In this document: positions 13,735-64,000 of the stretch, piece after piece
Layout of the letters: each line of letters begins with the position of its first letter
How positions within the stretch are numbered: position 1 is the stretch's first letter
From: Zestosphaera sp.
Lineage (GTDB): Archaea > Thermoproteota > Thermoprotei_A > Sulfolobales > NBVN01
Length of the DNA: 64,000 nucleotides
Reading direction: 5' to 3'
Assembly (NCBI GenBank): GCA_038843015.1
Contig: JAWBSH010000003.1
Span: 3,634-67,633 of the forward strand
The notes under the pieces: model-generated
The model's input: only the letters and a program-made list of their open reading frames with translations
Told to the model about the DNA's origin: nothing
Databases searched by the model: none
Position numbers and translations under genes: made by a program

Positions 13735-14190
13735 TCAGCTAACTTCTTTACGCATTAAGTAAGCGTCTGAGTCGGGGTAGTAGTTGGGTAGCCTCTCAAT
13801 TATCTTGTAGCCTAGCTTCCTGTAGAGGTTTAAAGCTCTCTCGTTTTTTACAGAGACTTCAAGCTCTAGGCACTTAATCTTAAGTTCTGAACATCTCTCC
13901 TCAAAAGACGTCAGCAACTTTTTGCCTAACCCTACCCCGCGTGATTCAGGGTCTACAGCTATAGAAGCTATGTGGCAACAATTACTAGTTGTTACGAACC
14001 CGGTTATGTAACCTTTAACGAGTCCGCCACACTCAATAACTAAGAACAGTTCTGGATGGAGAAACAGTGCCGAAATAAACACTGTAATGGGGTACGGGTA
14101 TTCAAAAGATCTTCTTTCTATCTTAACTATTTTTTCCATATCTCTCAGGGAAGCATTCCTCACTATACACTCACTTACTTCATAGACCAT
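13735..14190 (-). CDS. GNAT N-acetyltransferase (RimI-like)
   Basis: IAVDPESRGVGLGKKLL acetyl-CoA binding motif. 151 aa. Confidence 0.75.
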   Translation of the reverse strand: MVYEVSECIVRNASLRDMEKIVKIERRSFEYPYPITVFISALFLHPELFLVIECGGLVKGYITGFVTTSNCCHIASIAVDPESRGVGLGKKLLTSFEERCSELKIKCLELEVSVKNERALNLYRKLGYKIIERLPNYYPDSDAYLMRKEVS

Positions 14191-15185
14191 AACTTCATTA
14201 CCTCATCTTCCACGTAAGGGTCGTAGACATACTCTCTTGAACTTCCTCTAAGTACTTCTAAGAGAGGTCCTTCATGATTTCTGGGAAGCACCTCACCAAT
14301 CACCGATGCTTCTATACTATTTTTCTTGAGTAAGTCTACAGCCTCTTCGACCCGCTCTCTCGGTACAGAAGCTAGTAAAGCGCCTGATGAGAGTATTTTC
14401 AGTGGGTCTAGACCTAAAGCCTTAGTAATTTCTATCGTTACTTCATGAATAGGTATTTTATCAGCATACACTCTTATGAGCTTTCCTGACGCGTAAGCCA
14501 TTTCAGCAAGACCTCCTAACAATCCTCCTTCTGTTGGGTCATGCATGCCGCTCACTAAGCCTTCCCTGCTCAATAGGGTTGCTTCTTCTACGACGCTAAT
14601 TAAGTTTATCATTTCCTCACCTTTGTTTAAGGTCTCTTCACTGACTCCTCTAGTTACGAGCGTCTCTCTAAAATCAGATGATAGCACGGCAGTTCCTTCG
14701 ATACCTGCATACTTACTCACAATGATTAGGTCTCCTTCTTTGATGTTCCTGACATCTACTAAGTTACTTAGTTTGAGTATGCCGAAAGCCGTAGTTATAG
14801 CTACAGGTCTCTTAACACTATCAGTAAACTCTGTGTGACCTCCCACCATTAAGGCCCCGTATCTGTCTAGCGTTCTCTTCATAGAATCTGTTATTGTGTT
14901 CACTAAGTCTTCGCTTGACCCTTCAGGAAGTAAGATGACTGACGTGAAGAACTTTGGGTAAGCACCTATCATCGCGACGTCGTTAGCTGGTATAACTATA
15001 GAGAGAGTTCCGAGATGCTTGACTGCTCCTGAGATCGGGTCTGGATGCACACCTATAAGAACTTCGTCACAAGCCTTAACTGCTGCTGCGTCTATCCCGA
15101 TGTCTGCTTGAAGAACTATTGAAGGGTCGTGAGTCTTAAATTTATCTAACACATGTTTCTTTAGGCTCTCAGGCTTGAGCTTCAT
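14175..15185 (-). CDS. AIR synthase-related (PurM/HypE/ThiL superfamily) protein
   Basis: N-terminal DAA..., GGHTEF and two-domain PurM-like organisation. It lacks a C-terminal Cys motif, so I do not call it HypE. Confidence 0.55.
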   Translation of the reverse strand: MKLKPESLKKHVLDKFKTHDPSIVLQADIGIDAAAVKACDEVLIGVHPDPISGAVKHLGTLSIVIPANDVAMIGAYPKFFTSVILLPEGSSEDLVNTITDSMKRTLDRYGALMVGGHTEFTDSVKRPVAITTAFGILKLSNLVDVRNIKEGDLIIVSKYAGIEGTAVLSSDFRETLVTRGVSEETLNKGEEMINLISVVEEATLLSREGLVSGMHDPTEGGLLGGLAEMAYASGKLIRVYADKIPIHEVTIEITKALGLDPLKILSSGALLASVPRERVEEAVDLLKKNSIEASVIGEVLPRNHEGPLLEVLRGSSREYVYDPYVEDEVMKLWSMK

Positions 15186-16091: not shown

Positions 16092-17174
16092 ATGCCGGAA
16101 GTAAGAAGAATTCAAAGATTTGGTAAGTCAACTCTAATGGTTTCATTACCGGCAAGCTGGGTTAAATCAATGAAATTACTGCCTGGTGATAGTGTTTCGA
16201 TAGACTTGATGGAGGACGGGTCGTTAAGAATAGTACCCCTCTATATGTCTCAAAAAAGAGAAGAGAAGTTATTACAGATAAAAGTGAGCAAGAATTCTTC
16301 TGAAGTCTTGCTTGCTAGAAGTGTTGTCGCCGGATATCTTCTCGGCGCTGACGTCATAATTGTGGAAGCTATGGACGGGGTACTCTCAGAAACACACTTG
16401 AAAACGGTGAGAGACGTGGTTAGAGAGCTTTTAGGTGCTGAAATACTTGAGCACACCCCGAGTAAAGTCTCAATACAGATCTTGATAGACGCGAGTAAGT
16501 ACTCGGCACTCAACCTACTTAACAGACTACTTAACCGTGTTAAGTTCATGATACAACATCTGCAGATAGCAGTAATAGATAATAAGCCATACCTACTTCA
16601 CGAGATAGAGGAAATAGAGAGAGAAGTTGACAGGCTTCACGCCCTAGCTATTAGGCAATTCCTCCAGGCACAGAACGACAGGTCTCTCAGCAAGTACTTG
16701 GGGATTAAGACGTCTCTGATACCAGAGTACAGAGGGATAGTTAAAGGACTTGAGGAAGTTGCTGACGCGCTGAGTTCGGCGGCACAAGTACTTAAAGAAT
16801 TGGATGAGCTGGGTCAGCTAGCCTTATTTAATTACGAATCAAACATTCTTAGAGAGAGTCTTGACTACCTTCTCATGACTGTTGAGAGGATAGATAAAGT
16901 ATTTAAAACTCTAGACCTCTACGTAGCTAATGAAGTCATTAATATGGTTACCGAGTACTACACTCTGATAAGAAAATACGATGAGCTTTTCTTCAGATCG
17001 CTTAAACAAGAAGAGCCGAACAAGTTATTCGATAAGAGCTATGTTCTAGTTAGAGAATTTATCGATAGGTTGGTAGAGGCGGGCAGGTCTCTAGAGTCTG
17101 TTTCTGAAGCGCTCTTTGACATATCTATAGAGAAAGCTGGGGCTACCCTAGACATATGTAAAGTCTTCATATAA
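16092..17174 (+). CDS. AbrB/SpoVT-domain plus PhoU-like-domain regulator
   Basis: N-terminal swapped-hairpin motif [35 protein letters not shown], followed by long helical PhoU-like repeats. Confidence 0.65.
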
Positions 17175-31803: not shown

Positions 31804-32994
31804 TTGAAAAAATATTCTTGTTGGTCTCATATGAGGGAGTATTTGAGATACGTCGAGTTTGTAAGACCTGACTCGGTAAGAGTTTGGAGAAGCGATAAAG
31901 TTAGAGAAAGGCTCTCATGGTATTATTCTGTGATGCGGGGGGCATCGCCTCCTAAGTACTTGATAGTTAAGAGTATATCAATAGATTTCAAGAAAGATGA
32001 ATTAACCATGTTGAGTATTGATGAATTATTGAAGGAGCATTCAAGACTGCAGAGAGTTTTTGATGAGTTATGGAATGAGGTTAAGGAGTCTAAAGACTCT
32101 TGGAAGTATGTGAGGAATAAGGTGGTTGAGAGACCTTCATTTCTGGACTTGAAGATAGAATTAGCTGATAGGCTTGCAAGCCCGTGCAGACTCTGTGAGT
32201 GGAAGTGTAGTGCTTTAAGGAGTGAGGGTAGGATGGGATACTGTAGAGTTACAGGACTTAACGCGTACGTCGACACATTCTTTCATCACATGGGGGAGGA
32301 GGCCCCCTTAGTTCCTTCAGGCACTATATTCTATGTAGGTTGCAACTTCAGGTGTGTGTACTGCCAGAACTGGAGTATAAGTCAGCGAGAAGGACTGCCC
32401 TCAGAAGAAAAAACTCCTGAAGAATTAGCAGATATTCAAAAGTGGCTTGCGTTAAACGGCGCTATAAACATAAACCATGTGGGCGGAGATCCTACTCCAA
32501 ACATACCGGCTATACTGAAGTCACTTAAGTATCTAGATATTAGGACTCCTCAATTATGGAATAGTAATATGTACTTAAGTAGTGTGGCTATGGAACTCGT
32601 GAGAGACGTAATAGACATATGGTTGCCAGACCTCAAATATGGTAACGATTCTTGCGCTCTCAAATACTCTATAGTCAAGAACTATTTTGAAGTAGCGTCC
32701 AGGAACATAAAAATAGCTCATGACTCGGGTGATGTCATAATAAGACACCTAGTACTACCTAACCATGTGGAGTGCTGCACTAGGAATGTGCTTAAGTGGA
32801 TCTCAGAAAGTGTTAGAAGGGCCTTAACTAATATAATGGATCAGTATAGGCCTGAGTACTTAGTTGTTAGACAGCCTGATAAGTGGGGTGAGATAAGGAG
32901 GCGTGTTAGTACTGAGGAACTCAAGAGGGCTTTTGAGCTAGCTAGAGAATACGGTTTTGAGGGCCCTGTTGAGGATTTATGGTATCTAGAATAA
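31804..32994 (+). CDS. Radical SAM protein (PflX/COG1313-like)
   Basis: GCNFRCVYCQNW (CxxxCxxC). An upstream Cys cluster CRLCEWKC..GYCRV. Confidence 0.7.
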   Translation: MKKYSCWSHMREYLRYVEFVRPDSVRVWRSDKVRERLSWYYSVMRGASPPKYLIVKSISIDFKKDELTMLSIDELLKEHSRLQRVFDELWNEVKESKDSWKYVRNKVVERPSFLDLKIELADRLASPCRLCEWKCSALRSEGRMGYCRVTGLNAYVDTFFHHMGEEAPLVPSGTIFYVGCNFRCVYCQNWSISQREGLPSEEKTPEELADIQKWLALNGAININHVGGDPTPNIPAILKSLKYLDIRTPQLWNSNMYLSSVAMELVRDVIDIWLPDLKYGNDSCALKYSIVKNYFEVASRNIKIAHDSGDVIIRHLVLPNHVECCTRNVLKWISESVRRALTNIMDQYRPEYLVVRQPDKWGEIRRRVSTEELKRAFELAREYGFEGPVEDLWYLE

Positions 32995-42849: not shown

Positions 42850-43779
42850 TTGCTTGGTGGAAGACATTGCTTAATTATCTTAACAATTGGTTTGTTGTTG
42901 TTTGGAGGCCTAGCTTTAAAAGCTTCTGACGGTCTAAGATATACGTACATTCTCTATCCTGACGGACACGCTCATGTCAAGGTGGTGTGTAACGTGTCTG
43001 GGAAAGAGTTTCTAGAACTTAAACTTGAGAGAGGATACGTGAACGAGACAATTATGGCTTTCTCCGATAGTGGGATGCCCCTGCCTTACATATTAAGTCC
43101 TGACGGGAAGATAGTTGTTGATGTCAGTAACCTGAGTAGCGTGACTATAGAGTATGAGGCAGTAGTAGGGAGCGTATTCACTGAAGTTCAGGTTAACGTA
43201 CTTATAAATCCGTTAGGTCCTGCCGACGTAATACTACCACCTAATTCTGCTCTCTTATACTTTAGTGGCTCACCACAAATAACTACAGTTAGCGACTCAA
43301 CAGGTAAGCAGTTTTATTTAGTTCTTAGTTATGATAGCGCAGGCACGTATGAAGTTAGTTTCCTACTACTCCCTCGGACAGAGCTCCCCACCGAAACACT
43401 CAGCTCTCAAACAACTCCCCCCTCTAGCGAGGCCGGAGCATTCGATACTCTTATTTTCATTTTGGTAGGTGTGGCGGTAACGGCTTTGCTAGGATACTTT
43501 ATTATAAGGAGAAGACTTGAGAAAACGTCTGAAATAGAGCCTCTACTAGAGCATGGTTTTGACGAACGTGACAAGGCGATTCTTAAAACGTTGAGTAGTG
43601 GCGAGGCTACTCTATCAGACTTGAGCAAGGCAGTAAGACTAAACAAGTCTGTTGTTTGGAGGAGGTTAGAGAGGCTTAGAGAATTGGGATATGTTGAGAA
43701 AGGCTATTCTAGAGGCAAGTCTATATATAGATTGACACAAAAAGGATCGAAAATCCTTAAAGACCTAGACAATCAGTAG
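42850..43779 (+). CDS. Membrane-anchored winged-helix (MarR/ArsR-like) regulator with extracytoplasmic N-terminal domain
   Basis: N-terminal signal/anchor, a ~170-aa domain, an S/T/P linker and the TM segment FILVGVAVTALLGYFII. The C-terminal part is ILKTLSSGEATLSDLSKAVRLNKSVVWRRLERLRELGYV. Confidence 0.55.
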   Translation: MLGGRHCLIILTIGLLLFGGLALKASDGLRYTYILYPDGHAHVKVVCNVSGKEFLELKLERGYVNETIMAFSDSGMPLPYILSPDGKIVVDVSNLSSVTIEYEAVVGSVFTEVQVNVLINPLGPADVILPPNSALLYFSGSPQITTVSDSTGKQFYLVLSYDSAGTYEVSFLLLPRTELPTETLSSQTTPPSSEAGAFDTLIFILVGVAVTALLGYFIIRRRLEKTSEIEPLLEHGFDERDKAILKTLSSGEATLSDLSKAVRLNKSVVWRRLERLRELGYVEKGYSRGKSIYRLTQKGSKILKDLDNQ

Positions 43780-43791
43780 ACTTTCAGAGTC

Positions 43792-45120
43792 TCAGTCCTT
43801 CTTAGTGTACAGTCTTTCAAGCAAGTCTCTCCTGTTCACCCACACCTTCGTTAAATCTCTATTCTTACTAACCGGCTGTCCCCCACCTAAGAGGCAGCCC
43901 CCTGGACACGCCTCAAAAACTACTTTCTCAGCATGTTTAGCACGATCTGAAAGAATCTGTTTTAGATTCTTAAGTTCGCTAACTACTACTACACCTTCCC
44001 TAAAATCTAGTATTTCGTCAGGTCTCTCTGCACCTAACCTCTCCACGCCTAGTTCTCTTATGAGTGACTGAAGTTCGCGCGTAGTTAGTGAATTTACTAT
44101 ATTTCTCCATGAGAGACACTGAGTTATGTAGACAGCGTCTTGAGGTATTCTCGGCGTGAGTAAACGGACACGATATTCAGGGACGTGCTTACTAAGTATT
44201 GAGTACTCCACGGGTGATCTAGCCAGAACATCATTTTCTGCATTGTTTTTAACTTCACACAGACTTGAGTATACGAACACCCTTGAAAACCCAATAATCT
44301 TGAGAGCAGAAATTACCTGCTCTAACTCGAGATTGTCTGACTCCATAAGTGATGCTAGTGCTTCAGGCTCTATATAAGCTATTCTCAAGAAACCCTCACG
44401 GACCTTATCTAACAAATCTTTTGTTTTAGTCTTAAGGCTTATGGCTCCCACGGGACAGTAAGCAAAACAGAGTCCGCAATTAATACACCCAGCATTTTCT
44501 AGTGGTTCTTGATATGGTGTAGAAATCGTTGTTTGCACTCCTTTGAAAACATAGTTTAACACTCTAGCGCCTACTAACGAACACGCTTCAACACATCTAC
44601 CACAAACAACACACTTAGAAGTGTCTATCTCAATAAGTGAGCCGTCAATTCTAAAGCTATCTCTACCGACTTTGCTAAACCTTCTACTACTAACGCTGAT
44701 TAAGTTACCGTCAGCCAGCTCTTTCAGTAACTTAATTAACTCGCTAGTGTTTATTGGACACCCCCTAACGTGATAATCTACCTTGACGTAGTGACTTACT
44801 GGTTTAGAGAAGCTTGCTTCAGCTCCCGGCTTTTTTATGCCTGCCTGAACGCCTCCCAGTATCGCGCAAGCACCCACAGCTATCAAAATCTTAGATTTCA
44901 TTCTTGTCCTGGAGAGTATTTCTAGGTCTCTGCTTGACACTACGGAGCCTTCAATTAACGCAACATCATATGCTTCTACTTGTTTCTTTAGACCCAGTAA
45001 TGGCCAGAAAACCAACTCAACGTCGAGTTTCTTCAAGAAGTCTAAGAATCCCTCACTTAAGAGATTATACTGACACCCGTCACAACCTGCGAGAGGCACT
45101 ACGGCTAGCTTGAGAGGCAC
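43792..45120 (-). CDS. [NiFe] hydrogenase small-subunit N-domain fused to a 2x[4Fe-4S] ferredoxin domain and a [FeFe]-hydrogenase H-domain-like relic
   Basis: aa 1-125: PLAGCDGCQ, GACAILGG and RGCP (NuoB/oxidored_q6-like proximal cluster ligands). aa 169-226: CVVCGRCVEAC and CINCGLCFAYCP. aa 230-442: LKIIGFSRVF, YITQCLSW and EACPGGCLLGGGQP. GTG start with GAGGTGA 5 nt upstream. Confidence 0.7.
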   Translation of the reverse strand: MPLKLAVVPLAGCDGCQYNLLSEGFLDFLKKLDVELVFWPLLGLKKQVEAYDVALIEGSVVSSRDLEILSRTRMKSKILIAVGACAILGGVQAGIKKPGAEASFSKPVSHYVKVDYHVRGCPINTSELIKLLKELADGNLISVSSRRFSKVGRDSFRIDGSLIEIDTSKCVVCGRCVEACSLVGARVLNYVFKGVQTTISTPYQEPLENAGCINCGLCFAYCPVGAISLKTKTKDLLDKVREGFLRIAYIEPEALASLMESDNLELEQVISALKIIGFSRVFVYSSLCEVKNNAENDVLARSPVEYSILSKHVPEYRVRLLTPRIPQDAVYITQCLSWRNIVNSLTTRELQSLIRELGVERLGAERPDEILDFREGVVVVSELKNLKQILSDRAKHAEKVVFEACPGGCLLGGGQPVSKNRDLTKVWVNRRDLLERLYTKKD

Positions 45121-45125
45121 TCAAC

Positions 45126-46415
45126 TCACCTCTTCTTAATTACGTGTACCGCACACGGGATACACGGGTCGTAGGCTCTAATCAGCGCCTCAACAAGCTT
45201 CTTAACTAAGGTGTCATCATAATCTCTCTCATTATCTATTAAGCCCCTTATTAAGGCCTCACTACTAACTTCCAGGTGTTTCGAGAACATTACGGTAGGC
45301 GTTATTATGTCTGCCTTAACTACTCTCAACTCAGGACTTAACTCGTAGTAGTGTATTAGAAGACCCCTGGGAGCCTCGATGACTCCGACCCCGAAACCGC
45401 CTCTAAAGTTGTTGTCATGTTTTACTCTCTTAATCTTTTCCATTTCTAGAGAAGTTAGAGCCTGCAACAAGCTCTCGTATATGAGTAGTGACTCGATTAT
45501 CTTAGCATATATGTTAGAGAAGGGGTTCTCCTTGAAGAACGCCTCATAATTAGTTATTAAGTACCTAAGCTCGTTAGTTGTGTTGAGTCTACCTCTTCTT
45601 AGATAATTGAGTAGCCTAGCTCTAGCACCAGTATAGAAGACTTTCTTACCTGACATTAAGCACTTCTTGCTTGTTGATGAGTCTAGGTATTGCTCGACGA
45701 AGATTTCACGATAATTTCCGTGAATAACGTAAGTGTTTCTGAGTGTGTCTATGACGTAAGGTCCTCCCACAGGCACTGTCACGTTTGGAGACTCTCTTAA
45801 GGAAGCGTATTCTGGAGAGGGATCTGTGAGTTCAGGCAATTCAACACTTAAAACCACGTTAGCTAGTTCTCTCAAATCATTATTCAAGCTCCTCAAGAGA
45901 CTTAAGATTTTCTCAATTACCGTGGGCTTTACGTCTATAGTGAAACCCCCTGGTAGGTAGGTATTCGGGTTAGTTAGTCTGCCTCCCAACAAATTCAAAG
46001 CTTCGGTGACTACTCTGTTTACCCTGAGCAACGTACTCACGTACTTATCGCTCCTGACTAAGTGCTCATAATCCGGTAGGACCAGGAAGCCGAGATGCAT
46101 TATGTGATTCTGGAGAATCTGTAGCTTATTACATGCGTCCCTGAGTGTTGCCGTAGTTTCGTCTACCTTAATTCCCAGGGCTGACTCAATCGCCAGGTTA
46201 GATGCCCAGAAGTGGGCGTGACTGCAGACCCCGCACACTCTAGAAACTACGTAAGGTACTTCCCAGTATTTGCGTCCCTCAACTAATGATTCGAAGGACC
46301 TGGGACTAGCTAAGCTGTTGTACTCTACTCTAACATTCTCTCCCTCGATCTCGATGACGACTTCTGATTCTCCAGCAACTCTAACAATCTCTGAAGAGAA
46401 GAATTTAGTAGTTAT
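45126..46415 (-). CDS. [NiFe] hydrogenase large subunit (start uncertain: no canonical start codon before the conserved N-terminus)
   Basis: RVCGVCSHAH (RxCGxCxxxH) and C-terminal DPCIPCAVH. The frame is open up to 46421. The first ATG/GTG/TTG is the Val codon inside RVCGVC (46238). AGGAGGTGA lies at 46422-46430, followed 6 nt later by ATA at 46413-46415. Confidence 0.8.
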   Translation of the reverse strand: MTTKFFSSEIVRVAGESEVVIEIEGENVRVEYNSLASPRSFESLVEGRKYWEVPYVVSRVCGVCSHAHFWASNLAIESALGIKVDETTATLRDACNKLQILQNHIMHLGFLVLPDYEHLVRSDKYVSTLLRVNRVVTEALNLLGGRLTNPNTYLPGGFTIDVKPTVIEKILSLLRSLNNDLRELANVVLSVELPELTDPSPEYASLRESPNVTVPVGGPYVIDTLRNTYVIHGNYREIFVEQYLDSSTSKKCLMSGKKVFYTGARARLLNYLRRGRLNTTNELRYLITNYEAFFKENPFSNIYAKIIESLLIYESLLQALTSLEMEKIKRVKHDNNFRGGFGVGVIEAPRGLLIHYYELSPELRVVKADIITPTVMFSKHLEVSSEALIRGLIDNERDYDDTLVKKLVEALIRAYDPCIPCAVHVIKKR

Positions 46416-47058
46416 TGCTACTCACCTCCTCTATAAGTCTCCGAAGATTTTGCGGTAAGTAAGTCCAGAAGAAACTTACTAATGACTTAAGTTCACTTAA
46501 GTCTATGTTGCCGTTATAGAGGTTTTTAAGAGCCCAGGCCCATACGTCCTCACTTACAATATAGCCTCTGCACCCAATACATGGAGAACCCCTCCTAGGG
46601 CATTCAGCCTCGCAGCCAGCCACCGTTAACGGACCTAGACACGGAATACCCTTCAGCACCAAGCAAGAGTGCTCACGTAGTGAGCACTCACTACATACCG
46701 GAATACCTTCTACTCCTAGTTTTTTACTGAGGTCAAGCAACTCACACGCTCCTTTCCTCACGCAAGACCAGCACTTAATTTCGTGCGTAGCTAGAAGTAA
46801 TTCTAAGTTGATCTTCCTTAATTTTCTTAAATCACTATCATCGACTATGATTTTAGCGTTTTCAGATACAGGGAACTTACATGCTGGCACAACCCTCCCG
46901 TTAACTTTCACGACACATATTCTGCAAGTAGCCTCGTTAAAAAGTCCTTTAAGGTAACATAGGGTAGGGACTTCATACCCAGCTTTCTCTATGGCATCAA
47001 TAACTAGGGTGCCGGGAGGTACGTCAACTTCGTAATTATTCACGTAAATCTTAACCAT
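46405..47058 (-). CDS. HydA-N/HoxU-like FeS protein ([2Fe-2S] + His-ligated [4Fe-4S]) fused to a [NiFe] small-subunit C-terminal FeS domain
   Basis: CYLKGLFNEATCRICVV...PAC (plant-type 2Fe-2S). HEIKCWSCVRKGAC (Hx3Cx2Cx5C). CSECSLREHSC...PCLGPLTVAGCEAECPRRGSPCIGCRG. The likely start is the ATG at 47058 (MVKIYVNN); the track ORF begins at 47115. Confidence 0.7.
   Translation of the reverse strand: MVKIYVNNYEVDVPPGTLVIDAIEKAGYEVPTLCYLKGLFNEATCRICVVKVNGRVVPACKFPVSENAKIIVDDSDLRKLRKINLELLLATHEIKCWSCVRKGACELLDLSKKLGVEGIPVCSECSLREHSCLVLKGIPCLGPLTVAGCEAECPRRGSPCIGCRGYIVSEDVWAWALKNLYNGNIDLSELKSLVSFFWTYLPQNLRRLIEEVSSNNY
46422..46430 (-). promoter_or_regulatory. Shine-Dalgarno-like AGGAGGTGA preceding the hydrogenase large-subunit frame
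   Basis: Read on the minus strand, within the 3' end of the upstream gene. A similar GAGGTGA element precedes the next gene's GTG at 45120 with similar spacing. Confidence 0.5.
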
Positions 47059-47063
47059 AGAAA

Positions 47064-48887
47064 TCACACCTTCGTCACGGCCCCGAAGGGGCAAGCTATT
47101 AAGCACTGACCACACTTGATGCAGCGATTATAGTTTATTACGTGTGTTTTGCCGGGGGAACCGCTGATCGCGTTTGCAGGGCAGTTCTTAGCACATTGCG
47201 TACACCCTCTACATTTAGAGGGGTCTATCTCATACCTCACTAGCTTAGAACATACTTTAGCAGGGCACTTCTTCTTAATTACGTGGTCTTCGTACTCGCT
47301 TCTGAAATATCTTAGCGTAGATAGTATGGGGTTAGGTGCTGTTCCCCCTAATGCGCATAGAGATGATTTCGCAATGCTTTCTCCAAGCTCTTTCAAGACC
47401 TCAAGGTCTTCTAAGGACGCGTCCCCTGACGTAATCTTCTCAAGCACTTCACTAATGACCTTCATTCCTATTCTGCAGGGTAAGCACTTACCGCAGGATT
47501 CCGCTAAAGTGAAGGAAGTGAAGTATTTAGCTACATCAACCATGCAATTAGAGTCGTCTATTATGACTAATCCTCCGGAACCCATTATAGCGCCATAAGA
47601 CTGCAGAGTTTCATAATCTAGTTCTAGGTCTAGCAAGTCAGCCGGTATGCACCCGCCGCTTGGACCACCTATTTGGACTGCCTTAATAGCTCTCCCGTCT
47701 GGTGGCCCTCCAGCCAACTCATATACTAATGTCTTGATCTTAGTGCCTATAGGGACCTCATACACGCCGGTCTTCTTGACCGACCCAGTCACGCAAAACA
47801 TTTTAGTTCCTTTAGATTTCTCAGTACCATACTTAGTGAATTCCTCTAAACCGACCTGGAAGATAGTCGCTACGTGAGCTAGTGTCTCGACATTATTTAT
47901 GACTGTAGGCTTACCCCACAAACCGCTTGTTGCTGGGTACGGGGGTCTCTGTCTAGGTCTTGACCTACCTTCTATCGCTGCTATAAGAGCAGTCTCCTCA
48001 CCGCATACGAAAGCGCCGGCACTCCTATAAACCTCCACATCAAAACTGAAGTCAGTGCCTAGTATCTTCTCGCCTAGGAAGCCATAGTCTCTGGCTTGGC
48101 TAGCAGCCATCTCTAGCCTCTCAGCCATTAGAGGCTTCTCAGCCCTCACGAATATGTAGCCTCTAGAAGCCCCTATAGCGTATCCTGCTATGATTAACCC
48201 TTCTAAAACTCTATGAGGGTCTGACTCGGCCAGCAACCTATTCATGAACGCTCCCGGGTCTCCCTCATCACCATTACAGATCACGTACTTGACATCACTC
48301 TTCTGCTCGTACGCTACTCTCCACTTATACCAAGTGGGGAAGCCAGCCCCTCCACGACCCCTAAGACCGGACTTTCTCACTACTTCAATCACGTCTTCTC
48401 TGCTTAGCTTAAGTGCCTTCTTAAGACCTGAGTAACCGCCAGTTCTTATGTAATCTTCTATTGACTCAGGATCTACTAGACCACAATTCCTGGAAACGAA
48501 CCTGACCTGAAGTTTCCACTCAGGGAGAGAATCAAGCGTCGGTACATTCTTGAAGTCGTGAGTTCCTCCTCTGATTACCAAAGCACTACTCAAATTCCCC
48601 TTGACATATTCTCTCACTATCTTCTCAACTTCTTCTGGCTTAACGTTAGCATATATAGCTGGCGGAGCCCCCCTCATTTCTAGTTCTATCCATGGATCCA
48701 AGTAACAGAGACCCATGCACCCAACTTTCTTAATTGTAGCTTCAAGACCTAACTTCTCTAAAGTTTTCTTAACAGACTCAAGCACTCTGCTAGCGCCGGC
48801 TGCTAGAGTGCAACTAGCTAGAGGTACCTTAACAGTAAGCACATCAGCTCTTTGAAGACCTGCGTCAACCGTCAAGACCTTCATCAC
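47064..48887 (-). CDS. NuoF/HydB/HoxF-like NAD(P)H-binding flavoprotein subunit with extra FeS domains
   Basis: GLRGRGGAGFPT (FMN site) and ESCGKCLPCRIG (N3 cluster). C-terminal CRGCTQCAKNCP and CIKCGQCLIACP. An N-terminal thioredoxin-like domain. Confidence 0.85.
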   Translation of the reverse strand: MMKVLTVDAGLQRADVLTVKVPLASCTLAAGASRVLESVKKTLEKLGLEATIKKVGCMGLCYLDPWIELEMRGAPPAIYANVKPEEVEKIVREYVKGNLSSALVIRGGTHDFKNVPTLDSLPEWKLQVRFVSRNCGLVDPESIEDYIRTGGYSGLKKALKLSREDVIEVVRKSGLRGRGGAGFPTWYKWRVAYEQKSDVKYVICNGDEGDPGAFMNRLLAESDPHRVLEGLIIAGYAIGASRGYIFVRAEKPLMAERLEMAASQARDYGFLGEKILGTDFSFDVEVYRSAGAFVCGEETALIAAIEGRSRPRQRPPYPATSGLWGKPTVINNVETLAHVATIFQVGLEEFTKYGTEKSKGTKMFCVTGSVKKTGVYEVPIGTKIKTLVYELAGGPPDGRAIKAVQIGGPSGGCIPADLLDLELDYETLQSYGAIMGSGGLVIIDDSNCMVDVAKYFTSFTLAESCGKCLPCRIGMKVISEVLEKITSGDASLEDLEVLKELGESIAKSSLCALGGTAPNPILSTLRYFRSEYEDHVIKKKCPAKVCSKLVRYEIDPSKCRGCTQCAKNCPANAISGSPGKTHVINYNRCIKCGQCLIACPFGAVTKV

Positions 48888-48889
48888 TT

Positions 48890-49459
48890 CTAAGCCTTGT
48901 CTATATTTGACAGCGCTCTCGTCCTATAACCTAGAGCTACTTTCTTGCTCTCAGCTATGTTTAGCCTGCCGTGCACGTACCTCTCACTCTCGTCTGACGA
49001 GGTGACCATTATTACCGGAGCCAGACTACAACAACCGAAACACCTAGCTTTCTCTACGGTTATCGCGCCGTCTCTTGTAGTGTTTTCTCTCTCTTTCAAG
49101 TTGAGTGCTTTCTTTATAGATTCGTAGATCTCCGGAGACCCCTTAAGATAGCATGCTGTGCCAAAACACACGTGAATTACGTATGTTCCGAGGGGTTCTA
49201 GCCTAAACTGATGATAGAAAGTAGCTACGTTAAGAATTTCAGACAGTGGTATACCTAGCTTGTTAGATAGTGCTTCAAGAGACTGTCTAGGCAAATAATG
49301 AAACTCTCTCTGTATTTCTTGAAGCATGTTAATTAACTTACTTCTATCAACGCCATACTTATGAATGACTCTGTCTACTGTACTAAGGTACCTCTCAGAA
49401 TCTAACGTAATGTCGGCGCGTGATAACAGACGAGTCTTTTGTTCACTCACAGCACGCAT
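48890..49459 (-). CDS. NuoE/HydC/HoxE-like thioredoxin-fold [2Fe-2S] subunit
   Basis: VCFGTACYLKG...CFGCCSLAPV. Confidence 0.8.
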   Translation of the reverse strand: MRAVSEQKTRLLSRADITLDSERYLSTVDRVIHKYGVDRSKLINMLQEIQREFHYLPRQSLEALSNKLGIPLSEILNVATFYHQFRLEPLGTYVIHVCFGTACYLKGSPEIYESIKKALNLKERENTTRDGAITVEKARCFGCCSLAPVIMVTSSDESERYVHGRLNIAESKKVALGYRTRALSNIDKA

Positions 49460-49634
49460 GCCTAACCTCCAACTTATACTGGGGACACATTCTATATAAG
49501 GAGAATTTAATTAAACATACTTTCAGGTAAGTAAATTTAATTAAGAGGGTCTGCTTGAGGGGGACTCCTTATAGTGTTCTTATTTCTGTTGCTTCCGTCT
49601 TAAAAGGCAATCTAGGTTTTCAGCTACTGGTTTT

Positions 49635-50525
49635 CTACACTTTAGGGTAGAAGTGCTTACATCTACACGCTTTATTTCTTATACAACGTCCTAGAACAAG
49701 TTCTGAAATCTTTGATATCAGGTATGAACACCTCTCACAGAAATCAGACTCTACGTCCACGTTTTTAAGTAGCTTGAGTACGTTACTAGCCGTATTGACT
49801 GCCGTGTCTATGTCTTGCACTAGTAAAGCATTTATAGATCCTTCAGTCAATTCAATGAGCTTCTCAACGCATTTAACCTCTGAAGAAGTAAGTTCTCGGG
49901 CGTTGATGAACGTGTTAACTAATTCTTTCACATACTCTATAGAGAGTAGCAGGTCTATGGCTTCATAAGGCTCGACGCTATTCTCGGCTAAATTGAGTTT
50001 CAGGCTTCTTAAGAAGTGCAGGTAAATTCTCATAAACTCTCTGTGGTACATTGTGGCTTTCTCGTAATCTCTGTTGACGAGGCTTTCTAGTATTTCAGTA
50101 GTTATAGACTCTATAAGTTTTAGGGTGGAGGTTATGTCTGTCTTCACGTCATCGAATATTATCTCGTGTATTCTTGAGTTCGGGTCTGCCCTGAGCATGA
50201 ACATAGAGATGCTTTCTCTAAGTTTTTCAGAAATTTTGAGTAGTTCAGTATACTCAGCTCTCACTTTGACTCTAGTGACTCCCTCAACATATGATGCTAT
50301 GAGTTTTCTTAGAGCTAGGTCTGGTTCTTCAATCTCGATTAATATGTTGATGTTTTCTGGCTCCTCCTGAGTATGCGGCACTATAGTTATTTTAGAGCCA
50401 TCAAAGATTAGACCGATCTCGTCTCCAGGTCTTACGCCTATAGAATCTGCCCACTTCTTAGGTATGACTACTGATAAGGAACCTTTACCTATTAAGCCAA
50501 TCTTCTTGACTATCTTCTCAGTCAT
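49635..50525 (-). CDS. AbrB/SpoVT-domain plus PhoU-like-domain regulator
   Basis: GKGSLSVVIPKKWADSIGVRPGDEIGLIFDGSKITIVP followed by helical PhoU-like repeats. The likely start is the ATG at 50525. It is co-directional with, and 175 nt upstream of, the hydrogenase cluster. Confidence 0.6.
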   Translation of the reverse strand: MTEKIVKKIGLIGKGSLSVVIPKKWADSIGVRPGDEIGLIFDGSKITIVPHTQEEPENINILIEIEEPDLALRKLIASYVEGVTRVKVRAEYTELLKISEKLRESISMFMLRADPNSRIHEIIFDDVKTDITSTLKLIESITTEILESLVNRDYEKATMYHREFMRIYLHFLRSLKLNLAENSVEPYEAIDLLLSIEYVKELVNTFINARELTSSEVKCVEKLIELTEGSINALLVQDIDTAVNTASNVLKLLKNVDVESDFCERCSYLISKISELVLGRCIRNKACRCKHFYPKV

Positions 50526-50624
50526 AGAGCCTAACCCAATTAATACGTTAATTATCAAGTCTTAAAAGATTCTGCCTGAAGCAAGTCTCAACGGCTTTAA
50601 TTCCTGCGCTTAAGATATTATCGG

Positions 50625-52385: not shown

Positions 52386-52496
52386 GCGGGGGTGCCCGAG
52401 CCAGGTCAAAGGGGGCGGGCTCAAGTCCTCCGGCAGCAAGAGCGGGAGACCCGCTGGCGTAGGCCTGCGTGGGTTCGAATCCCACCCCCCGCACCA
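52386..52496 (+). tRNA. tRNA-Leu (anticodon CAA) with a ~23-nt intron at the canonical 37/38 position; CCA encoded
   Basis: Acceptor GCGGGGG/CCCCCGC. Class II D-arm and long variable arm. Anticodon stem GCGGG/CCCGC with loop CU-CAA-G[intron]A. T-arm GTGGGTTCGAATCCCAC. 3' ACCA. Confidence 0.85.
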
Positions 52497-61106: not shown

Positions 61107-62642
61107 TTGGTGCGATCTTTGAGTATCTATGAGTTAAGGGATAAGCTATTCTCAGATATTGTTGTGAGGGTAGATGGGGTCTATCACTTTAAGACATTCG
61201 TAGCTGGTTGGGTTACCTCAGATGATTACATAGAAGTCAGGAGTCCTATAGATATGTCGGTTATCGGGAGGGTGCCTAAGTTGCGGTGGGAGGTAGTTGA
61301 TAAGGCTCTTGACATTGTTTATGAGGTCGGTAGGTGGAGAGTTAGAGATATTCCTGGCTGGGCTAGACTTGACCTGCTGGAGAGGCTAGCAGGCTTGATA
61401 GAGCAACATAAAGAAGACCTTGTGGAGACTCTCATAATCAATGCTGGCAAGACTCGCTCGCAGGCTCTAGGCGAAGTTAACGCGTCTGTTGATAGACTTA
61501 GGAGAGCTGACCTAGACGCTAGGAAAATATACGGTGATTACATGCCTGGAGACTGGGACCAGACAACTACCGAGACTGAAGCCATAGTCAGGAGAGAGCC
61601 TTTCGGGGTCGTATTAGCTATCGTGCCATTTAACTACCCTCTATTCGATACCGTGAATAAGTTTGCGTATAGTTTCGTAGCCGGCAACGCGATACTAGTG
61701 AAGCCCTCGTCACTCGACCCACTGCCTGTATTGCTGTTTGCTAAGCTTGCTGAGGAGGCCGGCGTTCCTAAGGAAGCGTTCGCGGTCCTCACGATCCCGG
61801 GCCAGGAGAGTGACAAGCTCGTGTCTGACTGGAGAATTAGTGTGGTGAGTTTCACAGGCAGTAGCAAGACAGGTAAGAGCGTTTTGTCGAAGGCGGGCAT
61901 AAAGCAGTTCATAATGGAGCTAGGTGGTGGAGACCCAGCTATAGTTCTAGAAGATGCTGACATTGACTTAGCTGCTGAGAGAATAGCTCTAGGTATCTAC
62001 AGCTACGCGGGGCAGAGATGCGACGCCGTGAAGCTGATACTAGCTGAAGAAAGCGTTTACGGCGAGTTAAAGAAGAGAGTCGCGGCTAATTTAGCTAAGG
62101 TCGTTGTAGGAGACCCGAGAGATGAGAAGACAGTAATGGGTCCCTTGATAGAGCCTAAAGCTGTTGAAGAAATGCTTGAAGCTGTTAAGGAAGCAGTTGA
62201 GAGAGGCGGTAAGGTAGTGTATGGTGGCAGGAGGTTGGGACTGACTTACGTAGAGCCTACTCTAGTAGAATTCCACGACAAAGACACTCTGAAAGAGCTT
62301 CGACTATTTAAAGAAGAAATATTCGCGCCAGTAGCTCTGATTACTAGTTTTAAAGAACTTGATGAAGCAATAAGGATAGCTAATTCTAGAAGATACGGTC
62401 TTGACGCTGCAGTCTTCAGCTACAACATCGACAAGATCAGGAAGCTAATAAGATTCCTAGAGTTCGGAGCCATATACGTCAACGACATGCCTAGACACGG
62501 AGTAGGGTATTACCCATTCGGAGGACTAAAAGAGTCAGGTCTTGGGAGAGAAGGAATAGGCTACTCAGTAGAGTACGTAACCACGTACAAGACTATAATA
62601 TACAATTACAGAGGGAGAGGAGTCTGGAGATACGTTACCTGA
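61107..62642 (+). CDS. Aldehyde dehydrogenase family protein (non-phosphorylating GAPN-like)
   Basis: FTGSSKTGK, MELGGGDPAIV, catalytic-Cys motif AGQRCDAV and EEIFAPV. Confidence 0.8.
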   Translation: MVRSLSIYELRDKLFSDIVVRVDGVYHFKTFVAGWVTSDDYIEVRSPIDMSVIGRVPKLRWEVVDKALDIVYEVGRWRVRDIPGWARLDLLERLAGLIEQHKEDLVETLIINAGKTRSQALGEVNASVDRLRRADLDARKIYGDYMPGDWDQTTTETEAIVRREPFGVVLAIVPFNYPLFDTVNKFAYSFVAGNAILVKPSSLDPLPVLLFAKLAEEAGVPKEAFAVLTIPGQESDKLVSDWRISVVSFTGSSKTGKSVLSKAGIKQFIMELGGGDPAIVLEDADIDLAAERIALGIYSYAGQRCDAVKLILAEESVYGELKKRVAANLAKVVVGDPRDEKTVMGPLIEPKAVEEMLEAVKEAVERGGKVVYGGRRLGLTYVEPTLVEFHDKDTLKELRLFKEEIFAPVALITSFKELDEAIRIANSRRYGLDAAVFSYNIDKIRKLIRFLEFGAIYVNDMPRHGVGYYPFGGLKESGLGREGIGYSVEYVTTYKTIIYNYRGRGVWRYVT

Positions 62643-63297: not shown

Positions 63298-64000
63298 GTG
63301 TGGGTTTTGGACGAGATCGAGATACTTATTGGGGGTCCTCAAGGCTCCGGTATAGAGACTTCAATGATGGTTTTGTCTCGAGCATTCGCTAGAAGGGGCT
63401 ATGGCGTTATAGCTGACCGAGAATACTTCTCTAACATAACGGGGAGGCACAGCTACATACACATGCTGGTATCAGCTAATAAAATCCCTTCTTCTCTCCG
63501 TTATCCCGTCAAGATATTAGTGGGGGCGGACGCTGAGACAGTCTTCACGCATTTTGATGACTTAGCTGAAAAGGGAGTAATCATTTATGACAAGAAACAA
63601 TTGAATAAGAGGCTCGATGAGGTACCGAGCATCGAGAACGCGACCAAGAATAGAATATCCAGAAAACTAGCTGAGTTGGGGGTTCACCAAGACGTAGCTT
63701 CAGTAATTAAGTACTTGGAGAAGGAGAGGCGAGTCTTACCACTAGGTTTAGACTTTGAAGCTTTGCTGAGGAGTCTCTTAAACGCCTATAAAATCGACCC
63801 ACGCCAGCTCTCCAGGTACGTGAGCGGGTTGGTAGTGTCTTCTATAGCAGTCCTTACAGGATTGAGTGAAGAGTTTGTTAAGTACGGGTTTGAAGCTTTG
63901 TTTAGGGGACGAGAATACCTAGTAGAGCAGAACTTGATGCTCTTTAAACTAACTAGAGAGTCTATGAGGGGTTATGAGTCTATTCTTAAGCTAGAGAACC
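63298..64000 (+). CDS. 2-oxoacid:ferredoxin oxidoreductase alpha subunit of the two-subunit type (gamma-like domain first), 3' end outside the window
   Basis: GTG at 63298. My translation is VWVLDEIEILIGGPQGSGIETSMMVLSRAFARRGYGVIADREYFSNITGRHSY..., open to nt 64000. It is not in the ORF track because it runs off the edge. Confidence 0.6.
   Translation, partial: MWVLDEIEILIGGPQGSGIETSMMVLSRAFARRGYGVIADREYFSNITGRHSYIHMLVSANKIPSSLRYPVKILVGADAETVFTHFDDLAEKGVIIYDKKQLNKRLDEVPSIENATKNRISRKLAELGVHQDVASVIKYLEKERRVLPLGLDFEALLRSLLNAYKIDPRQLSRYVSGLVVSSIAVLTGLSEEFVKYGFEALFRGREYLVEQNLMLFKLTRESMRGYESILKLEN

Follow-up and report, generated by a model that had tools for sequence, protein, structure and literature searches.

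We analyzed a hydrogenase locus of five minus-strand genes at positions 43792-49459 of a 64,000-nt stretch of DNA from the hot-spring archaeon Zestosphaera sp. (assembly GCA_038843015.1, contig JAWBSH010000003.1; the whole stretch is called the window below). Because its architecture matches the published description feature by feature, the locus is, judged from its sequence, a copy of the archaeal hybrid hydrogenase operon known as "group F" [FeFe]/group 3f [NiFe] (Greening et al., Cell 2024; PMC11216029), and this architecture is not new. The assignment was made from observed gene content, domain homologies, ligand sets and synteny. We also consider it reasonably probable that the five products constitute a soluble [NiFe]-Bfu bifurcating hydrogenase of this hybrid type, in which the site resembling the H-cluster site of [FeFe] hydrogenases most likely holds a cluster of the [4Fe-4S] type.

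Five genes of a hybrid hydrogenase operon

The hallmark of the published system is a protein in which an N-terminal HyhS domain is fused to a C-terminal HydA domain; HyhL, HydB, HydC and HydD are the products of contiguous genes, and HydD is a conduit with four clusters, whose cofactors were modelled on both Acetomicrobium mobile HydA and the Mvh small subunit (PMC11216029). The window encodes the same five components: HydC, HydB, HydD, HyhL and a HyhS-H-domain fusion. Open reading frames (ORFs) were found exactly where the original prediction had placed five tightly packed genes; they are co-directional, and the intergenic gaps in the order hydC, hydB, hydD, hyhL and fusion gene are 2, 5, -11 and 5 nt. 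The domain parsing proposed for all five proteins also agreed with our Pfam, NCBIfam and PDB searches. However, the fused architecture had been regarded as novel, a view that was to be given up if the architecture belonged to a common, characterized subgroup. It is in fact both described (PMC11216029) and widespread, although its biochemistry is still thin.

In a scan of GTDB species representatives, about 46 genomes had a full-length relative of the fusion protein, and about 37 archaeal representatives showed the identical order hydC-hydB-hydD-hyhL-fusion; the hosts of this order include Zestosphaera, other Desulfurococcaceae, Ignisphaera, Thermofilaceae and Wolframiiraptor. Thermoproteia and Bathyarchaeia are also among the published hosts (PMC11216029). 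Over the loci with conserved gene order, identities range from 82% down to about 31%. A HMMER profile search of 1.84 billion representatives yielded about 24 full-length fusion clusters at 50% identity, which form a discrete family.

The flavin module is encoded by the first two genes. HydC matched Pfam 2Fe-2S_thioredx (E=3e-41) and the NCBIfam HoxE/NuoE family, and it carries the C1 [2Fe-2S] ligands C98, C103, C140 and C144 in the pattern Cx4Cx36Cx3C. HydB matched Complex1_51K (4e-47), NADH_4Fe-4S, SLBB and Fer4 in Pfam, has a GAFM motif, and ends in a 2x[4Fe-4S] domain (C559-569 and C589-599). In a phmmer search of the PDB, with full-length alignment at the residue level, it matched 9bov_B (1e-205), NfnB 9n5u_B (1e-202) and A. 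mobile HydB 7t2r_B (1e-201); these closest matches are all Bfu B subunits of experimentally bifurcating enzymes. The B1 [4Fe-4S] ligands are C465/468/471/511, and the B2-site ligands C448/T486/H535/C541/C546 align with A. mobile C438, C476, H525, C531 and C536. We took the criteria for Bfu enzymes from PMC9304861 and PMC12018979, which report that nearly all BfuB have the B2-site His whereas non-bifurcating homologues do not, and that the C-terminal 2x[4Fe-4S] ferredoxin-binding domain is absent from non-bifurcating NuoF/HoxF. By its residues, the HydBC core is of the Bfu electron-bifurcating type. The N-terminal thioredoxin-like domain of HydB showed a weak 2Fe-2S_thioredx match (residues 24-94) with three Cys only (C26/C57/C61), the same pattern as in the aligned region of T. 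sibiricus NfnB, whose B5 site holds Zn.

HydD, a protein of 217 residues, is chimeric. Residues 1-123 correspond to the HydA N-terminus, with Fer2_4 (3e-12) and NADH-G_4Fe-4S_3 (8e-12), and residues 1-124 matched FeFe_hydrog_A6 (3e-31); PDB 7q4v_A scored 2.5e-23, and this part carries [2Fe-2S] ligands C34/45/48/60 and the Hx3Cx2Cx5C cluster ligands H92/C96/C99/C105. Residues 119-181 matched the C-terminal half of sulfhydrogenase delta (positions 164-227 of NCBIfam sulfhyd_HydD, E=4.5e-16), and the small-subunit segment aligned with residues 161-225 of PDB 9nez_A (8e-16). Its eight Cys would suffice for two [4Fe-4S] clusters. The complementary N-terminal half of a small subunit is found in the fusion protein, which has 442 residues in three parts: the HyhS domain, a HydA-type 2x[4Fe-4S] domain and a shortened H-domain. 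Residues 3-138 form this half, with matches to Oxidored_q6 (1e-21, residues 13-134), to positions 1-150 of sulfhyd_ShyD (4e-22) and to PDB 9e1j_A, and with proximal [4Fe-4S] ligands C13, C16, C85 and C121, which are invariant in the family.

The catalytic [NiFe] subunit, HyhL, matched Pfam NiFeSe_Hases (1.4e-26), and its best families and structures belong to groups 3b, 3c and 3d; the nearest solved relative is the alpha subunit of P. furiosus sulfhydrogenase I (SHI; 2e-36), and A. mobile HydL scored 4e-24. Both Ni-Fe motifs (RxCGxC and DPCxxCxxH) are present, as RVCGVC at residues 59-64 and DPCIPCAVH at 416-424, with all four ligands (C61, C64, C418 and C421) and five residues after the C-terminal His. 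Within the hyhL ORF, no ATG, GTG or TTG occurs upstream of the essential RVCGVC. The ORF opens at ATA (46413-46415, minus strand), 6 nt after a strong GGAGGTGA at 46422-46429. Among 23 homologous loci, the closest relatives (L001-L003 and L020) have TTG at the same codon, and a distant metagenome-assembled genome (MAG) of the Sulfolobales (L007) has ATA there too. Gene callers differ on the length of this gene (429, 407 or 370 residues). From this comparison, ATA is probably a genuine non-canonical start of hyhL.

The likeness to the bifurcating [NiFe] enzyme of A. mobile (NiFe-HydABCSL; Feng et al. 2022, PDB 7T2R/7T30) that had been suggested from the sequence also held, as seen in the HydB match and the shared BfuBC core. 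The two systems further share the [NiFe] large/small pair and a HydA-derived iron-sulfur (FeS) conduit, and in A. mobile HydA the H-cluster site is non-catalytic and holds a plain FeS cluster. The reaction of H2 with NAD+ and ferredoxin (Fd) has been measured for the A. mobile enzyme, and the same reaction is expected for the window complex. The enzyme from A. mobile, however, belongs to a bacterium and keeps HydA (692 residues, sites A1-A5) and the one-cluster HydS (179 residues) separate and intact, whereas in the archaeal locus HydD and the fusion protein are chimeras between which the modules have been redistributed, and two extra clusters of the small-subunit type are present. In addition, the large subunits differ, HyhL being nearest to group 3b and HydL of A. 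mobile being Hox-like, with 36% identity to HoxH of H. thermoluteolus, and Cys476 of the A. mobile B2 site is Thr in HydB of the window. Greening et al. explicitly contrasted the hybrid complex with A. mobile HydABCSL (PMC11216029).

Other known systems resemble the locus in part. T. sibiricus Nfn-Bfu (NfnABC, PDB 9N5U) shares with HydB the Thr at B2 and, in the N-terminal domain, a first motif with a single Cys, but its third substrate is NADPH, handled by a different A subunit, and it has no hydrogenase module. In NfnB, the B2 and B5 sites hold Zn, and this enzyme supports a "flavobicluster" of flavin mononucleotide (FMN), B1 and C1 as the bifurcation site. P. furiosus SHI (group 3b) is the nearest solved relative of HyhL and of both small-subunit halves, and has a similarly short tail after DPCxxCxxH; however, its small subunit is one polypeptide, and its beta and gamma subunits, with a GltD-like flavoprotein, take the place of the NuoE/F-like subunits. 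Bidirectional HoxEFUYH (group 3d), like the window complex, wires a NuoE/NuoF/NuoG-like diaphorase to a [NiFe] pair, but it keeps HoxU and HoxY as separate proteins that are not permuted.

The H-domain-like end of the fusion protein

The original prediction read the C-terminal end of the fusion protein as an H-domain. Homology and fold are indeed H-domain-like, but it had been overlooked that one of the four cluster cysteines is replaced by Ser. HydA homology spans residues 141-434 overall: residues 141-282 match the 2x[4Fe-4S] domain (ligands C170/173/176/180 and C212/215/218/222) and the start of the H-domain, in alignment with residues 115-264 of 7p5h_A, and residues 377-434 (CPGGCLLGGGQP) correspond to the end of Fe_hyd_lg_C. 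The Pfam match to Fe_hyd_lg_C was sub-threshold (2e-4; 21.5 bits against a gathering score of 22.1). An AF2 model of the fusion had a mean pLDDT of 77, mostly 82-96 over residues 231-390 and lower towards the C-terminus. In Foldseek, the best matches of the model were [FeFe] hydrogenases (TmHydA, 9e-14, and CpI), and its N-terminal part matched the [NiFe] small subunits SHI delta and MvhG.

For the H-like domain, we aligned 44 family members with canonical enzymes and then added 21 representatives from the profile search. The fusion family falls into two clades. The longer proteins (476-580 residues), of the Thermoplasmata type, have (S/T)-W-C at motif L1 and keep ligand Cys300, whereas in the Thermoproteota clade (427-477 residues) the window protein and nearly all of its relatives have x-S-x-x-E in place of the canonical TSCCPGW. 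In this clade, Cys300 is replaced by an invariant Ser (S302) and Trp303 by an invariant Glu (E305), and the position of the proton-relay Cys299 is variable, being Arg (R301) in the window protein. The motifs of the latter are ARSPVEY at L1 (R301, S302 and E305), TQCLSWR at L2 (C335) and EACPGGCLLGGGQP at L3 (C405 and C409). Thus three of the four H-cluster cysteines (C300, C355, C499 and C503 in CpI) are kept, as C335, C405 and C409. The positions of Met353 and Met497 are also changed. The L2 Cys and the L3 motif CPGGCxxGGGQP are invariant, and the L1-L2 and L2-L3 segments comprise 33 and 70 residues, compared with about 55 and 144 in canonical enzymes.

Over 42 sequences of the Thermoproteota clade, S302, E305, C335, C405 and C409 are at least 95% conserved despite a mean domain identity of 33%, which suggests that the H-like site probably still holds metal. 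Given the change of Cys300 to Ser and, in the window protein, of Cys299 to Arg, a canonical H-cluster is doubtful. From the residues kept, the site, with three Cys and an invariant Ser, most likely holds a [4Fe-4S]-type cluster instead, and by analogy with A. mobile HydABCSL the Thermoproteota clade may functionally be a [NiFe]-only bifurcating enzyme. The Cys-to-Ser site is possibly an unreported clade-level variant.

A few fusion proteins have the canonical "CC" (L046 8001-9350 and P0128) or "CS" (L043 8001-9260 and P0127) at L1, and by these motifs appear to be transitional between the long clade, which retains Cys, and the Thermoproteota clade of the Ser type. The replacement of K358 by Trp was considered as evidence against an H-cluster, but we dropped this point because the clade that retains Cys300 also has no Lys at C+3 and, like the window protein, has Lys or Arg at C+4.

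Compared with the modelled and assayed type, the window locus differs in several ways. The Thermoplasmata loci that we fetched have the order fusion-HydC-HydB-HydD-HyhL and a HydB of 1066 residues, whereas the window has fusion last and a classic Bfu B subunit; in the modelled hybrid complex, a glutamate synthase domain (GltA) was placed on HydB (PMC11216029). At L1, the Thermoplasmata fusions have S-W-C with the ligand Cys, whereas the window protein has R-S, with Ser invariant in its clade. The window fusion is 27-30% identical to the Thermoplasmata fusions overall, and about 21% identical over the H-like domain.

Proposed electron path and competing explanations

HydB carries the marks of a Bfu subunit and HyhL has all four metal-binding cysteines, and so the function predicted from the sequences is most likely the reversible conversion H2 ⇌ NAD(P)H + reduced ferredoxin. 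We infer assembly, electron path, bifurcation, direction and the cofactor of the H-like site as follows. The five polypeptides would assemble into one soluble enzyme, in which HyhL would activate or evolve H2 at the [NiFe] site and pass electrons to the proximal cluster that the HyhS part of the fusion carries. From there, they would move through the small-subunit-type clusters and the His-ligated cluster of HydD, the 2x[4Fe-4S] domain of the fusion and then the [2Fe-2S] cluster of HydD, to end at the B1 cluster and FMN of HydB. The FeS wire would therefore zig-zag between the two chimeras, which in three dimensions would jointly reconstitute a single small subunit and a single HydA FeS domain. 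HydBC would split the electron pairs between NAD(P)+ at FMN and, through the [2Fe-2S] cluster of HydC, ferredoxin at the C-terminal clusters of HydB, according to 2 H2 + NAD(P)+ + 2 Fd(ox) ⇌ NAD(P)H + 2 Fd(red) + 3 H+. As for the origin of this arrangement, exactly these two chimeras would result if ancestral hydA and hyhS had undergone a single reciprocal exchange.

The physiological direction is probably H2 evolution (confurcation) in a fermentative hyperthermophile. This fits because the window contains two loci for 2-oxoacid:ferredoxin oxidoreductases, both predicted originally and both confirmed here, and an aldehyde dehydrogenase. The gene of the latter (61107-62642, plus strand; Aldedh 1e-124) adjoins the second oxidoreductase locus (63298-64000, plus strand), and it is possibly a non-phosphorylating glyceraldehyde-3-phosphate dehydrogenase. 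The aldehyde dehydrogenase and this second locus could be a source of NAD(P)H and reduced ferredoxin for the hydrogenase.

Several points weigh against a [NiFe]-Bfu enzyme with a [4Fe-4S]-type H-like site. The case for bifurcation is made by homology, and Thermoproteota-clade members, like complete hybrid complexes of any clade, are all unpurified. The B2 and B5 sites of HydB resemble the Zn-type sites of T. sibiricus NfnB, with Thr486 and three N-terminal Cys, so that the exact cofactor content is uncertain. Motif scans of the window proteins found no hyp, maturation endopeptidase or HydEFG signatures; the lack of hyp and endopeptidase genes, which had already been pointed out, is uninformative because the scan covered the window only. 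The only assays in the family were made in lysates with two Thermoplasmata fusion proteins, one of which, Th1, produced H2 after artificial maturation by loading with [2Fe]adt (PMC11216029), and thus related H-domains can be catalytic. Finally, in four Bathyarchaeia species (L026 8001-14248, L027, L029 and L045), the cluster reads hydC-hydB-hydD-fusion and hyhL is missing between its last two genes, an arrangement that is difficult to square with an H-like domain in a purely accessory role. In L026, this cluster is followed by an 825-residue protein resembling a helix-turn-helix/HdrA/MvhD protein and by a separate MvhG-like/MvhA-like [NiFe] pair.

The last two of these points also speak for the dual-catalyst hybrid of Greening et al., in which the fusion carries an active H-cluster, the [NiFe] site is active as well, and the complex acts as a redox valve, one module evolving and the other consuming H2. 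The modelled fold of residues 233-442 is that of an [FeFe] hydrogenase H-domain, the L2 Cys and L3 motif are invariant as noted above, and the invariant Ser could stand in for Cys as a cluster ligand. However, we regard two active sites as rather unlikely in the window enzyme: the L1 cysteines are absent from its whole clade, in contrast to the longer clade of the Thermoplasmata type, where Cys300 is present, the L1-L2 and L2-L3 spacings are far below canonical, the domain is distant from the assayed type, the Fe_hyd_lg_C match is below threshold, and the motif scan of the window gave no HydEFG-type motifs. An intermediate idea, somewhat easier to accept but still tentative, is that the Cys3-Ser(-Glu) pocket of the Thermoproteota clade is a functionally required and previously unrecognized derivative of the H-cluster site that holds no canonical H-cluster. 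Such a pocket could be a Ser-ligated [4Fe-4S] centre that serves as an extra entry or exit for electrons, or it could be a modified catalytic site, which would explain the Bathyarchaeia clusters that have no dedicated [NiFe] large subunit. In that case, the majority of the genomes listed as archaeal "[FeFe] group F" would differ in mechanism from the assayed Thermoplasmata enzymes.

The remaining explanations concern the partner of the [NiFe] site. HyhL and both small-subunit halves are nearest to P. furiosus SHI, and NuoE/F/G-like sets also occur in non-bifurcating Hox enzymes, so that one could propose a non-bifurcating NAD(P)-linked group 3 enzyme of the HoxEFUYH or sulfhydrogenase kind, with the extra FeS domains as passive wiring. 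We find this improbable: HydB has the His535 site, the C-terminal 2x[4Fe-4S] domain and the N-terminal thioredoxin-like domain that, according to the Bfu papers, are absent from non-bifurcating homologues, and its best matches all bifurcate in experiments. HoxF-type homologues such as that of R. eutropha have no Bfu-specific B2-B5 sites (PMC9304861). An F420-reducing hydrogenase of group 3a is suggested by the JGI names of fusion homologues ("coenzyme F420-reducing hydrogenase gamma subunit"), by a "NiFe 3A" statement for Zestosphaera tikiterensis relayed in PMC11467010, and by weak NCBIfam matches to FrhG and FrhA. Yet these scores are far below the cut-offs, no FrhB-type F420-binding subunit is encoded within ±10 kb, the partner module is NuoE/NuoF-like, and the F420 biosynthesis pathway is absent in these organisms (PMC11467010). 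Gene content thus effectively refutes this identity, and its probability is close to nil.

Neighbouring genes and implications for the family

The features of the locus are listed in Table 1. Upstream of hydC on the minus strand, a TATA-like box, TTATATAG, is located 32 nt before the ATG and is followed by GGAGGT at 49465-49470; from the sequence, these are likely the promoter and ribosome-binding region of the operon. A run of T is found 3' of the fusion gene.

Table 1. Features of the hybrid hydrogenase locus (positions in the window)
Feature	Position	Strand	Description or basis
Likely operon promoter and ribosome-binding region	49465..49499 (TATA-like box, 49492-49499)	-	read directly from sequence
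hydC	48890..49459	-	189 residues; NuoE/BfuC-like, one [2Fe-2S]
hydB	47064..48887	-	607 residues; NuoF/BfuB-like subunit for FMN and NAD(P)(H)
hydD, N-terminal part (residues 1-118)	46705..47058	-	HydA/NuoG-type [2Fe-2S] and His-ligated [4Fe-4S]
hydD, C-terminal part (residues 119-217 and stop)	46405..46704	-	homologue of the medial/distal-cluster half of a group 3 [NiFe] small subunit
hyhL	45126..46415	-	429 residues; group 3 [NiFe] large subunit
Fusion gene, HyhS domain (residues 1-138)	44707..45120	-	N-terminal half of [NiFe] small subunit
Fusion gene, ferredoxin-like 2x[4Fe-4S] domain (residues 161-232)	44425..44640	-	Fer4 families; HydA alignment
Fusion gene, shortened H-domain-like region (residues 233-442 and stop)	43792..44424	-	motif alignment, AF2, Foldseek

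Directly upstream of hydC, a 307-residue protein with a SpoVT/AbrB domain is encoded at 49635-50558 (minus strand), and another protein, which combines an AbrB domain with a PhoU-like region, is encoded at a distance of 33 kb (16092-17174, plus strand); either could be a regulator. Convergent with the end of the operon, the gene at 42850-43779 (plus strand) encodes a 309-residue protein whose N-terminus is hydrophobic and which has another hydrophobic stretch and, at its C-terminus, a winged-helix (ArsR/TrmB-like) domain; these features suggest a membrane-anchored DNA-binding protein. Exact-sequence look-ups of two flanking proteins of the window gave no record. An Rfam tRNA match at 52386-52493 (plus strand; 108-nt span, 41.8 bits) had no ARAGORN call and is probably an intron-containing archaeal tRNA.

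Two candidates for maturation genes in the window were rejected. The protein encoded at 31804-32994, the sole CxxxCxxC protein of the window, was considered as a HydE/G-type gene product but is only weakly NrdG-like. For the AIR-synthase-family (AIRS) protein encoded at 14175-15185 (minus strand), HypE is the best likeness (4e-35), but the score is well below the 251.6-bit cut-off and the protein does not have the C-terminal PR[IV]C cysteine that HypE needs.

Among the relatives, contig L047, labelled "Candidatus Nealsonbacteria", agrees almost completely in genes and proteins with the Thermoplasmata contig L049 and is probably mis-binned. Both contigs have a second, Hox-like cluster (NuoE/NuoF/NuoG/small/large), divergent from and adjacent to the hybrid cluster.

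Proteins identical to those of the operon recur in NCBI MAGs that bear the name Zestosphaera sp. (Desulfurococcaceae), GCA_038861255.1 being one example. Database annotation misses the hybrid system entirely: the names in use are "hypothetical protein" or "4Fe-4S binding protein" for the fusion and, for relatives, "F420-reducing hydrogenase gamma subunit", JGI names among them. For cultivated Z. tikiterensis, a group 3 [NiFe] cluster has been reported with the label "NiFe 3A" (relayed in PMC11467010), and we suggest that this cluster is probably the same hybrid operon, misclassified.

The hybrid hydrogenases underlie a recent high-profile claim of a shared old history of [FeFe] and [NiFe] enzymes and of archaeal H-clusters. 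To their architecture, the Zestosphaera locus adds nothing, being one more example; however, the largest and thermophilic branch of the family has Ser at the position of an H-cluster ligand Cys. If this branch is indeed [NiFe]-only and bifurcating, then estimates of the spread of archaeal [FeFe] hydrogenases would need trimming. Given that Z. tikiterensis is cultivated and that its cluster is probably the same operon, this organism would be a convenient supply of native enzyme when a complete hybrid complex is first put to a biochemical and structural test.

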